Shown here piece after piece: positions 43,408-46,609 of a DNA stretch of 64,000 nt; within the stretch, counting starts at the first letter, position 1; every line of letters begins with the position of its first letter. Made by a program: the position numbers and the translations under genes. The notes beneath the pieces were generated by a model. It made no database searches, was not told the origin of the DNA, and saw only the letters and a program-made list of their open reading frames with translations. Source of the DNA: Patescibacteria group bacterium (GTDB lineage: Bacteria; Patescibacteriota; Patescibacteriia; UBA9934; GWF2-40-263); contig SCUM01000001.1 of assembly GCA_004297215.1 (NCBI GenBank), positions 353,181 through 417,180 of the forward strand. Reading direction: 5' to 3'.

Positions 43408-44997
43408 TTACAACAGCGCCGTCCCCGTCATCTCCGGCGGCTGCGGGATTCCCAAGACGGACAGGACCGTGGGCGCCACGTCGGCGAGCATGCCGACCGG
43501 CTGCATGAGCGAGAGGTCGCCATCGGGTACTTCCCCGGCAGGCGACGGCACCCCCTTGAACCGGTTCCCGACGATGACGAACGGCACGGGGTTCGTGGCA
43601 TGTTCCTTGTCGATCTCGCCGGTGCGCACGTTGAGCACCTCCTCGCCGTTGCCATGGTCGGCCGTGAGGAACAGGACGCCGTCCTTCTCAAGCACGGCGT
43701 CCACCACCTTCCCGAGGAACCCGTCCACCGCCTCCATCGCCTTCATGGTCGCCGGAAGGTTACCGGTATGCCCCACCATGTCGGGGTTGGCGTAATTCAT
43801 GATGATGAGGTCGTCCTCCCCTTTGCCGATCGCCTCGATCACGCGGTCGGTGAGGTCCGCGCCGCTCATCGCGGGCGCCTCGTCATAGGAGGCCACGCGG
43901 GGGCTTGGCACCAGGATGCGCCGCTCGCCCTTGAACGGCTCCTCTCGCGTGCCATTCACGAAGAAGGTGACGTGCGCGTATTTCTCGGTCTCGGCGATGT
44001 GCAGCTGCGTGAGTCCGGCATCGGAGACGGTCTCGGCCAGCGTCTTGGAAACGGCGACCGGGGGATAGGCGACTTCCACCGGGAGTCCGGACTGGTATTC
44101 CACCATGGTGACGGGAAGCAGGTCCTTGATCGTGGCGCGCGGGAACCGCGTGAAGTCCGGGATGACGAACGCCTTCACGAGCTCGCGCATGCGGTCCGGG
44201 CGGAAGTTGAAGAAGATGACCGCGTCGCCGTCCTTGACCGTCGCGACCGGCTTGTCCGCGTCCGTCATCACGGTCGGGACGAATTGCTCGTCATACACCT
44301 CGCGCGCGTAGCTCTCCCTGATGGCCATGATCGGGTCGCTCGCGGTCTCGCCGACCCCCGCCGCCATCGCGTCATACGCCTTCTGGACCCGATCCCATCG
44401 GTTGTCCCGGTCCATGGAATAATAGCGGCCGCTCATGCTCGCGAGCTTCCCGACCTTCAGCTTCTTCATCGTCGCGAGGAGCTTCCCGACGAAGTCGATG
44501 CCGGCGTTGTAGAGCGTGTCGCGCCCGTCGAGGATAGCGTGCACGAACACCTTCTCGGCTTTCTGCTTCTTGCACAGCTCAAGCAGCGCGAAGCAATGCT
44601 CATCCATGGAATGCACGCGCCCGGCGCTCACGAGCCCGATGAGATGGATCGCGCTCCCGTTCTTCTTCGCATGCCCGATCGCCTTCCGGAACGCCTCGTT
44701 CTCGAAAAAATCGCCGCTGACGATGTCGCGGTTGATGCGCGGGAAGGTCTGGTAGTACACGCGCCCGGCGCCGATGGCGAGATGCCCCACCTCCGAGTTG
44801 CCCATTTCGCCCCACGAGAGCCCCACCTCCTCGCCGGAAGCGCGCAGCGTCATGGTGGGATAGTCGCGGATGAGCGACCGGAACACCGGCATCTTGGCAC
44901 GCGTGACCGCATTCCCCGGCCCATCCGGCGCCACGCCAAACCCATCAAGCACCATGAGCACCGCGGGTTTGGGGCGTTTATTCGAGGCATCTGCCAT
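43408..44997 (-). CDS. gpmI: 2,3-BPG-independent phosphoglycerate mutase
   Basis: LDGFG, GNSEVGH, ETEKYAHVT, DMVGHTG and TADHGN motifs. Confidence 0.97.
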   Translation of the reverse strand: MADASNKRPKPAVLMVLDGFGVAPDGPGNAVTRAKMPVFRSLIRDYPTMTLRASGEEVGLSWGEMGNSEVGHLAIGAGRVYYQTFPRINRDIVSGDFFENEAFRKAIGHAKKNGSAIHLIGLVSAGRVHSMDEHCFALLELCKKQKAEKVFVHAILDGRDTLYNAGIDFVGKLLATMKKLKVGKLASMSGRYYSMDRDNRWDRVQKAYDAMAAGVGETASDPIMAIRESYAREVYDEQFVPTVMTDADKPVATVKDGDAVIFFNFRPDRMRELVKAFVIPDFTRFPRATIKDLLPVTMVEYQSGLPVEVAYPPVAVSKTLAETVSDAGLTQLHIAETEKYAHVTFFVNGTREEPFKGERRILVPSPRVASYDEAPAMSGADLTDRVIEAIGKGEDDLIIMNYANPDMVGHTGNLPATMKAMEAVDGFLGKVVDAVLEKDGVLFLTADHGNGEEVLNVRTGEIDKEHATNPVPFVIVGNRFKGVPSPAGEVPDGDLSLMQPVGMLADVAPTVLSVLGIPQPPEMTGTALL

Positions 44998-45066
44998 AGG
45001 TGGGGACATTGTAGCAGAAACCAAACCCCGTCCTCTTAGAGAGGCGGGGTGGTTGGTCCCGAGCCA

Positions 45067-45143
45067 TGGTGGAGCCGACGGGATTCGAACCCGTAATGCC
45101 AGGTGTCAACCCTAGTGAGGTTGCCAATTACCTCCACGGCCCC
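45067..45143 (-). tRNA. Atypical tRNA: Ala-type acceptor stem (G3:U70, A73) with anticodon loop GUUGACA (reads UGA; GAC in a shifted register)
   Basis: 77-nt cloverleaf GGGGCCG/CGGCTCC-ACCA, D stem GAGG/CCTC, anticodon stem CTAGG/CCTGG, T arm ACGGG-TTCGAAT-CCCGT. Confidence 0.8.
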
Positions 45144-45176
45144 GGCAACGTTTCCGTTGCGGCCCGGGATGTGAAC

Positions 45177-45211
45177 AAAAAAGACCCCCTCAAATTGAGA
45201 GGGTCGTTTTT
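45177..45211. terminator. Bidirectional intrinsic terminator between the promoter and the atypical tRNA
   Basis: AAAAAA-gaccccctcaa/ttgagagggtc-GTTTTT. Confidence 0.7.
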
Positions 45212-45252
45212 GTGACACCTGGATGGAGGAAATGCCTCACTAGGATATTAGG

Positions 45253-45281
45253 AGCGTATCAGTTTCCCGCGAAAATGTCAA
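45253..45281 (-). promoter_or_regulatory. Sigma70-like promoter
   Basis: TTGACA-17 nt-TACGCT on the minus strand. Confidence 0.65.
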
Positions 45282-45349
45282 TCTTCACCTGTGGATTGTT
45301 TAATCGCCGAACTCTTCTGAACAGCCATTGCCTGGCGGTCAGATTCATA

Positions 45350-46609
45350 TCAGGCCGTTTCCTCCTCAATCTCCATCAGCCGGTTGTATTTGGCGAGGCG
45401 TTCGGAACGCGATAACGAACCGGTCTTGATGTACTCGGCGTTCACGGCGACGGCAAGGTCCGCGATCGTCGTGTCTTCCGTTTCCCCTGAACGATGCGAC
45501 ACGGAAACCTTGTAGCCGCTCTTTTGCGCGAGGAGGATCGCATCGACGGCTTCGGACAATGATCCGATCTGGTTCACCTTGATGAGGATGGCGTTGGCGC
45601 ACCCATGCGCCACGCCCTGTTCCAGCCGCGCGACGTTGGTGACGAAGAAGTCGTCGCCTACGAGCGCGAGCTTCGCGCCCAGCGTCTCGGTGAGCTTTTC
45701 CCAGCCGTCCCAGTCGTCTTCCGCGAGGCCGTCCTCAAGCGAGACGATCGGATATCTCTTGGCGAGCGCCTTCCAATACGCGATCATCTGGTCGCTCGTG
45801 AACGTCTTCCCGTCGGCTTTCAACACGTAGCGCTTGCGCTTCGCGTCATAGAACTCGCTCGCGGCAGGGTCCATGGCGAGCATCACGTCCTTTCCCGCCT
45901 TGTACCCGGCGGCCGCGATCGCTTTCATGATGGCTTTGAGCGCATCCTCGTTTTTCTTGAACGGCACCGCATAGCCGCCCTCGTCGCCCTTCAGCGTGGA
46001 GTATCCCTGCTTCTTGAGAAGGTCGCCCAGCGCATGGAAGATCTCCGCGCCGCAACGGACGCGTTCGGCAAACTTCTTCTGCATCGGCGCCACCATGAAC
46101 TCCTGGAAATCGATCGCCCAGCCGGCGTGCACGCCGCCGTTCAGGATGTTCATCGTTGGGGTGGGGAGTCGGTAGGGGGTAGGGGGTAGGTGGTAGGCGC
46201 GGCGGAGGTAGGCGTAGAGCGGCATCTTCTTCGCGTTCGCGGCGGCGTGCGCCACGGCGAGCGACACGCCGAGGATGGCGTTGGCCCCGAGCTTTCCCTT
46301 GTTGAGCGTCCCGTCGAGCGCGCACATCCGCGCGTCCACGTCGCGCTGCTTCGTGGCGTCCATGCCGATCACGGCCTTGGCAATCGGGCCGTTCACGTTC
46401 TTCACGGCCTTGAGGACGCCTTTGCCGAAGTAGCGCAACGGATCGCCGTCGCGAAGCTCGAGCGCCTCGTGGCTCCCGGTGGATGCGCCGCTCGGGACGG
46501 AAGCCGTTCCAACCGCGCCGCCCTCAAGCATCACCGTCGCCTGGACCGTCGGGTTGCCTCGGCTGTCGAGGATCTCATGCGCGTGGACGGAGGAGATTTT
46601 GGTGGACAT
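45350..46609 (-). CDS. eno: Enolase
   Basis: [27 protein letters not shown] and KYNRL motifs. Confidence 0.98.

Follow-up and report, generated by a model that had tools for sequence, protein, structure and literature searches.

A conserved family of tRNA-shaped genes with alanine identity in Patescibacteria, nearly all adjoined by a predicted cognate anti-anticodon RNA gene: a candidate RNA-only toxin-antitoxin module

Adjacent RNA genes with interacting products are known from type VIII toxin-antitoxin systems such as CreTA and SdsR-RyeA, in which the partners lie on the same or on opposite strands and specificity diverges between modules (PMC10767807). The present study concerns a family with a similar arrangement, one member of which lies in a 64,000-nucleotide stretch of DNA from a Patescibacteria group bacterium (hereafter, the window). 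The element in question is a tRNA-shaped gene with alanine identity at positions 45067-45143 (minus strand), adjoined on its upstream side by a predicted gene for a small RNA complementary to its anticodon arm. In CreTA, CreA represses toxin transcription through Cascade and CreT sequesters a tRNA, whereas the toxin proposed here is the tRNA itself, masked by direct pairing; the genes for SdsR and RyeA overlap (PMC10767807), those of the present cassette do not. No Cas domain was found in 210 flanking open reading frames (ORFs) and no CRISPR family in Rfam scans. As far as sequences tell, the family shares no defining feature with CreTA or SdsR-RyeA beyond the presence of two RNAs. It does consist of two adjacent predicted RNA genes with no recurring protein neighbor, with cognate recognition seen in silico only, and would be type VIII-like if toxic.

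A cloverleaf RNA downstream of a two-part complementary site that is split by a hairpin, with pairing in crossing order, is found in the C4 RNA of P1 and P7 (c4-a1b1; PMC2864571) and in the CI RNA of P4 (PMC4825925). The form of our family found in Uhrbacteria copies the layout of both. It differs from them in being a true tRNA with G3:U70, a T-loop and CCA, in lacking a second downstream target or controlled gene, a phage setting and an Rfam C4 match, and in having a partner that can be a separate gene. The C4 and CI cloverleaf RNAs are about 77 nt in size. In the type III toxin-antitoxin system ToxIN, a promoter is followed by a short RNA, a terminator and the toxin gene; the cassette shares this layout, except that its downstream gene is a tRNA and not a protein nuclease, and its short RNA is a single antisense unit instead of a series of repeats. 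Transfer-messenger RNA (tmRNA) and tag-less mini-tmRNA have G3:U70, A73, CCA and the T arm in common with the family, which differs by its paired D-stem, closed anticodon arm, absence of a tag frame and occurrence in several copies beside a normal tmRNA. In staphylococci, extra tRNA-Gly genes of a single amino-acid identity, with odd features and weak EF-Tu determinants, serve Fem ligases in a non-proteinogenic role; the present family retains G18-G19, the T-loop and G51-C63, its T-stem pairs look tight-binding, and its genes show no link to Fem. The nearest toxic tRNAs are the allo-tRNAs (8/4 and 9/3 types; Mukai et al. 2017, PMC5389517; PMC7609411), which have serine or alanine identity and diverse non-cognate anticodons, act as toxic missense suppressors in E. 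coli and were reported near toxin-antitoxin genes. Their fold is different: the genes described here have the ordinary 7/5 acceptor/T branch and a variable region of 4 nt in place of a long arm, reside in Patescibacteria and come each with a cognate antisense RNA, "antisense" being a term that does not appear in the main text of PMC5389517.

The tRNA-shaped gene and its cassette

The gene at 45067-45143 specifies a complete 77-nt cloverleaf with an encoded CCA end, as a preliminary description of this DNA had stated without giving the strand. Also read in the sequence, in keeping with that description, are G1-C72, G2-C71, G3:U70, G4-C69 and A73, the 7-nt anticodon loop GUUGACA (45104-45110, minus strand) with G32 and C37, and the 4-nt variable region. 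The D-stem, on which the description was silent, has five pairs. ARAGORN and a family profile both recognize the RNA, and the cloverleaf is its minimum-energy fold (-32 kcal/mol, z -2.19; 9 out of 200 shuffles were equally good). The acceptor carries the full bacterial alanine identity set, A73, G2-C71 and G3:U70 (PMC9976931, table), as in a canonical tRNA-Ala; the NGC anticodon, the Y32-U33...R37 loop and the 4-bp D-stem of the latter are missing. The nominal anticodon is UGA, as had been noted, and ARAGORN calls the gene tRNA-Ser(UGA); the long variable arm of such a tRNA is absent (4 nt here, as against normal serine tRNAs of 88-95 nt in the same genome). Read one base further 3' (+1 register), the loop presents GAC. 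C37 had been called atypical and truly is, because position 37 is a purine in all 46 ordinary tRNAs of the genome. As to the claim that the stem fails in the one-base-shifted register, the shift does cost pairs, but the loss is milder than stated: a mean of 3.3 out of 5 pairs remains against 3.9 out of 5 in the nominal register (113 copies, both strands moved inward relative to that register).

The host genome (984 kb, two contigs) has 50 tRNA genes by ARAGORN, namely a full ordinary set and four odd RNAs, two called Ser(UGA) and two Ala(UGC). Normal genes for serine (UGA, CGA, GGA, GCU; long arm), valine (GAC, UAC, CAC) and alanine tRNAs (UGC, CGC, GGC) thus exist besides the odd ones. Homologues of the window gene keep the same type of loop and show no ordinary alanine anticodon, and the adverse outcome that the preliminary description had envisaged for the homologues did not arise. 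The loop assembly error considered there is not visible either: contigs from run X1 (word depth about 89) show no alternative letter in the loop, an agreement that is not independent evidence, as this run is possibly the source of the window. An Rfam scan of the window gave no match at threshold, the window copy falling below the tRNA threshold; its best sub-threshold match, limited to acceptor and T arm, is tmRNA (35.7 bits, threshold 47). On a separate note, the ordinary set includes a tRNA-Ile with anticodon UAU (G000:C1:568893-568969) and only two CAU tRNAs, so that AUA may be read without lysidine in this host.

The alanine identity elements put forward in the preliminary description are confirmed. 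The main feature of the locus, the adjoining predicted gene for a cognate antisense RNA, was overlooked there. The partner lies 70-100 bases upstream of the tRNA, behind a sigma-70-type promoter, and ends at a terminator, giving a predicted RNA of ~75 nt; the same layout precedes each of the genome's four intact copies. In order come the -35 hexamer TTGACA, an extended -10 located 17 nt away, the two segments A and B with a hairpin between them, an intrinsic terminator, the tRNA within an outer stem, and a second hairpin. In the window, where all of these elements are on the minus strand, the -35 element TTGACA of the predicted promoter is at 45276-45281 and the extended -10 (TG-n-TACGCT) at 45253-45261, 17 nt from it. 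This -10 is weak (3/6 match to TATAAT) and was missed by a strict promoter scan; the consensus from 109 copies is TG-n-T-D-D-A-A-T, with TG present in 85. Of 107 cassettes, 105 have a -35 that deviates by no more than one mismatch and sits mostly 34-36 nt before segment A, which places the start of A at the predicted +1.

The predicted antisense RNA (45174-45246) is about 73 nt long, the mean for 104 copies being 78 nt; its outline is drawn from sequence, folds and pairing energies. Segment A (45235-45246) begins at the predicted +1 and complements the 3' strand of the D-stem and the 5' strand of the anticodon stem (-20.5 kcal/mol). The linker (45223-45234) folds into a small hairpin together with the 3' end of A and is followed by segment B (45213-45222), which complements the anticodon loop and the 3' strand of the anticodon stem (-18.4 kcal/mol); compensatory pairs support both segments. 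An intrinsic terminator found by a terminator scan (45174-45212; stem at 45183-45205, then a U-run) separates the small RNA from the tRNA. In pair-probability folds of the free leader, the terminator forms at least 7 pairs at p>0.9 in 104 of 109 copies. In the precursor the tRNA would be enclosed by an outer stem, traced by eye (5' strand 45161-45169, 3' strand 45057-45065, a CCCGGG motif on both sides). This stem rests mainly on the shared motif, because the energy test discriminates weakly (-19.4 kcal/mol for the family, -15.2 for the flanks of ordinary tRNAs, -16.0 for swapped flanks). A second GC-rich hairpin (45018-45056), terminator-like by eye and not called by the terminator scan, closes the cassette.

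A 9-mer at 45290-45298 (minus strand), 8 nt upstream of the -35, has two mismatches to TTATCCACA, the DnaA-box consensus, and is a putative DnaA site. The same box with at most one mismatch occurs in 42 of 107 cassettes, in 39 of them 8-9 nt before the -35, and seven of the ten box-plus-TTGAC matches in the genome are cassette promoters. Boxed promoters with a terminator and no segments A and B also precede protein genes, one for an ORF6N-domain protein (Pfam) and one for an exported-looking protein adjoining tRNA-Leu(UAG) (L346:484-1014, minus, i.e., G000:C2 near 44986; L350, G000:C1 from 626255, plus).

Copy-specific pairing and conservation of the family

Across 65 copies, the mean pairing energy is -38.7 kcal/mol for cognate partners and -22.9 for swapped ones. 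The cognate partner ranks first in 51 copies and no lower than third in 63; the order A before B holds in all 65. Among the 110 copies with enough upstream DNA, 107 passed, an apparent miss was recovered (the partner is further upstream, behind an inserted hairpin) and two, L110 and L128, keep B only, directly at the predicted +1. In five multi-copy genomes, all 29 copies pair best with their own partner. In the 97 copies with RNAs of 76-77 nt (L059 left out), 1863 of the 2134 paired positions are Watson-Crick, with several pair types at most positions. G:U outnumbers A:C by 107 to 37 in cognate pairs, and when partners are swapped the two are nearly equal (377 to 370); an excess of G:U is what pairing between two RNAs read off the same strand should produce. 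In a search of the 984-kb genome for two-part sites, each of the four intact RNAs matched its own partner best, with everything else at background and no trans target above this level. Thirty foreign RNAs reached -40.7 kcal/mol in the host genome, by chance or on an orphan partner. The paired anatomy is, on these comparisons, firmly established at the level of sequence.

A covariance model built from 27 copies gives the four intact RNAs 85-99 bits and ordinary tRNAs at most 55. Profile matches occur in 80 of the 132 genomes of the order, 1-9 in each and with all seven families represented (36 candidates were scored per genome, and only part of the matches inspected); divergent forms are found elsewhere in Patescibacteria, beyond the order. 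Relatives bearing the cassette were also found by pattern, in records titled Candidatus Uhrbacteria or Patescibacteria group. The frequent "Gammaproteobacteria" titles were treated as unreliable because identical cassettes come from genomes of the same order. From these matches we assembled a profile-biased set of 113 distinct copies (score of at least 38, duplicates removed, two from other orders). G3:U70, A73 and U8 are present in all 113, G1-C72 and G2-C71 in 111, CCA in 99 and the 5-bp D-stem in 98. A scan blind to both loop and acceptor gave G3:U70 and A73 in 47 of 47 copies (CCA in 39), each with a partner in A-then-B order. The alanine identity thus appears from its invariance to be under strong selection. 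T-stem pairs are mostly C50-G64 and G51-C63, which look to be of the tight EF-Tu-binding type, and G18-G19 and the T-loop are kept. The family is real and conserved. It is also apparently undescribed: a literature search, with most subscription papers beyond reach, found no account of it or of a tRNA with its own anti-anticodon RNA.

The anticodon arm is variable. Its stem has five pairs in 17 of the 113 copies and four in 77; position 32 is G in 51, U in 35, A in 14 and C in 13; position 37 is C in 95 and a pyrimidine in 106; and 14 different nominal anticodons occur. Shifted to the +1 register, the loop shows the ordinary signature of U, Y, triplet and purine. The triplets are then GAC (57 copies), GUC (13), GCC (13), GGU (6), GAU (5), AAC (4), GGA (3), AGC (3), CAC (2), ACC (2) and AUC (1), four loops being out of frame. 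In 65 copies pair 31:39 is open and the loop grows to 9 nt, lengthened on its 5' side; with the fifth D-stem pair the arm would regain its usual length. Decoding by a tRNA whose loop is enlarged to 8 nt is known from yeast mitochondria (PMC3113583). The Val-like shifted register mentioned in the preliminary description is better supported than the Ser register.

Some matches lie at the margins of the family. Six borderline class matches of model R1 outside the order comprise two members (L106, L107) and four ordinary tRNAs, and its single phylum match outside the order is an ordinary tRNA. Other ABY1 genomes carry 74-nt tRNA-Ala(UGC) genes with a 4-nt variable region (L103, L104 and L105, ~1501-1574), from which the family scaffold may descend. 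In L192 (upstream of position 1456 to the tRNA end), a copy from the same order, the D arm is different, and a promoter followed by a partial complement and an ORF lies downstream.

Distribution, scatter and loss

A looser pattern for other ARRANGEMENTS (loop, fixed spacing, T arm and U70-C71-C72-A73) had matches in 31 of the 401 genomes taken from the class and in 11 of the 401 taken from the phylum, its reversed control having none; as the pattern fixes the loop motif, these copies are uninformative on loop conservation. The full acceptor with G3:U70 is present in 28 of the 34 class and phylum loci inspected. At least 10 contiguous complementary bases lie within 260 nt in 25 of these 28, and 20 of the 25 have a -35-like site in range (36/200 in the swap control). 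The match in L237 looks like chance and L168 and L170 are partnered, which, with none for L239, brings the partnered total outside the order to 26 of 28. L237:1472-1543 has stem mismatches and a partial duplicate of its own 3' end downstream. L239 (minus, 74 nt) may be a plain tRNA-Ala(CGC) with U37.

From a metagenome set, 80 of 95 stretches were taken, 71 of them distinct, and 45 passed an acceptor filter; the 26 removed comprise tmRNA-like ends, chance matches and some members with an acceptor mismatch or a miscalled start. A partner of at least 10 bases adjoins all 45 filtered copies. It is upstream on the same strand in 35, downstream in 2, downstream on the opposite strand in 4 and upstream on the opposite strand in 4, with an exact TTGAC in range for 37 of the 45 (control, 18/150). 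Many of these divergent RNAs measure 70-73 nt and have a small D hairpin and an 8-9-bp anticodon stem. As the partner is elsewhere found downstream or on the opposite strand, mostly with a promoter-like site of its own, it is a separate gene and not only a leader or attenuator. Since a partner bounded by promoter and terminator, with no gene behind it, has no output besides binding the tRNA, we infer that the partner is the regulator and the tRNA the effector. The only GGC-loop copy seen (L233:1472-1543) is broken at one acceptor pair, and the partner downstream of it remains a match to GAC; it looks like a defused copy. Twelve metagenome matches (L251, L252, L265, L271, L280, L288, L301, L303, L314, L316, L317 and L330) do not belong to the family; they show an AT-rich run followed by a T arm and CCA end and are perhaps tmRNA or integration-site remnants.

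The window cassette lies between genes for enolase (45350-46609) and cofactor-independent phosphoglycerate mutase (43408-44997), both on the minus strand, identified by their domains and external to the cassette. This eno-gpmI gap is cassette-free in five of five relatives (L156 and L158 among them), with a REP-like hairpin in two and unrelated genes in three; it is a volatile site. Throughout the family the flanking ORFs (102 downstream, 108 upstream; each the nearest long frame, some probably on the wrong strand) are unrelated housekeeping genes or unmatched, and no integrase, phage, Cas or Fem family recurs among the 210. Both flanks are available for 105 copies, which group into 97 site clusters; of the eight pairs, four are tandem copies in one locus. 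In a set of genomes that samples close relatives thinly, the most similar cassette comes from the genome itself in 33 of 62 cases, where 2.3 would be expected. Two cassettes with their own specificity each, divergent or in tandem, stand 0.4-1.6 kb apart in L003 (two copies), L025, L052, L066 and L142; L003 has a REP-like hairpin within its first terminator. Two strict patterns found no match in viral contigs, nor did phage and plasmid records contain a family match; looser viral-contig patterns returned 38 and 4 stretches, all ordinary tRNA-Ser/Tyr, tmRNA ends or chance.

In addition to its four intact copies, the host genome holds three disrupted ones (L347, G000:C1:83094-83794, minus; L348, G000:C2 ~92180-92875, minus; L349, G000:C1:800535-800860, plus). 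All three keep promoter, partner and terminators, and in each the portion from D-loop to T-stem is replaced by a palindromic REP-like element; their T-stems are mispaired and they look knocked out. The occurrence of the identical replacement three times suggests targeting or gene conversion. A GIY-YIG frame lies inside two of the three (one confirmed by Pfam). None of the intact RNAs matches two of the three orphan partners well. Loss is one-sided, in that the tRNA arm is gone from three cassettes and at least segment B persists in 110 of 110 copies with enough upstream DNA. Because orphan partners persist while intact unpartnered RNAs are rare (L237, L239), the partner alone appears to be tolerated.

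Proposed function and competing explanations

We propose that the cassette is a selfish, RNA-only toxin-antitoxin module, in which an alanyl-tRNA would misread non-alanine codons unless its anticodon is masked by the antisense RNA; our confidence in this reading is evenly balanced. A strong promoter and the terminator would make the short RNA in excess, the tRNA being produced only by read-through, matured by RNase P and charged with alanine by AlaRS. The short RNA would be the first to decay, so that a cell that loses the cassette or ceases to transcribe it would be left with free tRNA. Read in the +1 register (mostly GAC, GUC and GCC), the latter would insert alanine at Val, Asp and Gly codons; alternatively, still within such a module, the odd anticodon arm might stall the ribosome. 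New copies would persist only with a new specificity, which would drive divergence. Toxicity and decoding register are both predictions from the sequence, and alanine at Val, Asp and Gly codons is the likeliest route of harm, the alternatives being stalling, the Ser register and tRNA trapping. The precedent is that mistranslating allo-tRNAs killed E. coli (PMC5389517). Of the three ideas in the preliminary description, a mistranslating tRNA is the best survivor, with partial support. A bolder version, to which we hold only tentatively, sees a library of mutually orthogonal, protein-free addiction modules of ~300 bases, in which a DnaA-boxed promoter drives the anti-anticodon RNA; whenever transcription or replication stopped (through phage attack or host-cell loss), the misreading tRNA would be set free and cause arrest.

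In favor of the proposed module, the alanine anticodon GGC is absent in the +1 register from the 113 copies and from 46 loop-blind copies, a count that rests on related sequences and not on independent events. It is one transition away from the commonest triplet, GAC, with no change needed in the partner, and G35-G36 does occur in nine of the 113, always as GGU or GGA. Besides the relatedness just mentioned, several observations weigh against the proposed module. The three AGC copies would read an Ala codon in the +1 register; in the nominal one, an Ala anticodon is present in 13 of the 113. Neither register is therefore clean. Pair 31:39 can form in 48 of the 113 copies; the loop is then 7 nt, and reading in the +1 register would call for an unusual stack. 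L237 and L239, intact-looking and outside the order, have no partner within 1.4 kb. At the DNA level, an opposite-strand partner is a direct repeat, and a -35 within one mismatch accompanies only three of seven. Finally, one orphan partner is partly covered by the RNA of another copy (-34.3 kcal/mol).

The cassette might also be a switch of the C4/CI kind, with the tRNA-shaped RNA as antisense regulator and the A-hairpin-B leader as target, serving autoregulation or immunity against mobile elements whose leaders match. Its layout is indeed that of the a1-hairpin-b1 target of C4 RNA (PMC2864571), and P4 CI RNA, processed from the leader transcript, terminates by pairing with seqA and seqC (PMC4825925). 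What makes this unlikely is that antisense action does not need an invariant G3:U70, that the partner is a separate gene in other lineages, and that the terminator is predicted in the free leader in 104 of 109 copies. Moreover, there is no Rho match above cut-off, no second target downstream or elsewhere in the genome, no member in the viral scans or in phage and plasmid records, and no Rfam C4 or CI match in 10 loci. In an antiterminator test the fold was identical with A and B blocked in 36 of 104 leaders; this test is over-sensitive to end effects and was superseded by the pair-probability test, in which the expected pairs joining A/B to the terminator region exceed 3 for 15 of 104 leaders, making a minor antiterminator effect possible. 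The loop as an internal -35 element was discarded, no -10 being seen by eye at the right distance. Equally unlikely, in our estimate, is a harmless, switchable alanine carrier for a non-ribosomal user (a Fem-type wall ligase, lipid or peptide alanylation) or mild adaptive misreading, with the small RNA setting availability. The invariant alanine identity is as such a carrier would require, pyrimidine 37 and the variable position 32 speak against normal decoding in the nominal register, and the genome has one FemAB-like gene, which is unlinked. Yet neither Fem nor another user recurs among the 102 downstream and 108 upstream ORFs (there is one LPG-synthase TM match), so that the non-ribosomal donor of the preliminary description finds no support in the gene neighborhood. 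No NFACT_N/RqcH match exists in the genome, and RqcH-type alanine tailing was rejected on that ground. Masking of the anticodon arm would leave the acceptor end free and the donor switched on, and a patchy 0-9 copies with private specificities are unlike a housekeeping role.

A toxin acting other than by decoding is improbable too: the loop (U-N-N-C-A) would trap host G34 tRNAs through the codon and the bases complementing 33 and 37, or the tRNA would block synthetases or EF-Tu. The triplet ends in C in 95 of 113 copies, with flanking U and A kept, five pairs are possible with host Asp(GUC) or Val(GAC) loops, and one-sided loss and orthogonality fit equally well. GGC, the natural match for tRNA-Gly(GCC), is missing though, a five-pair kiss would be weak and alanylation would have no clear role. 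Much less probable is a two-piece mini-tmRNA, in which tRNA and partner would jointly rescue ribosomes, offering an alanyl end together with a short message. The D-stem would be opened by binding of A and B, so that an acceptor/T domain resembling that of tmRNA would remain, and tmRNA is the best Rfam match (35.7 bits). That match is under the 47-bit threshold and confined to acceptor and T arm, a complete tmRNA (113 bits) is encoded in the genome, no conserved reading frame is seen by eye in the partners, and rescue does not need private specificities. As to an assembly error or decayed tRNA pseudogene, which the position of the window copy under the Rfam tRNA threshold might have suggested, it is refuted, its chance being negligible: contigs agree, and 113 distinct homologues keep the fold with a co-varying partner.

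If the toxin-antitoxin reading is true, the tRNA itself would be the toxin, and the genetic code could be corrupted on demand by removal of one small RNA. The cassettes would be among the smallest known selfish genetic modules, would account for the extra tRNA calls (Ser, Thr, Pro, Leu, SeC and others) in annotations and would offer an explanation, open to experiment, of how host-dependent bacteria with tiny genomes become dormant or fend off phages; their size allows testing as one piece in E. coli. Even without toxicity, more than 100 natural, mutually orthogonal tRNA/anti-anticodon pairs amount to a novel regulatory layout and supply ready-made parts for switchable tRNAs.
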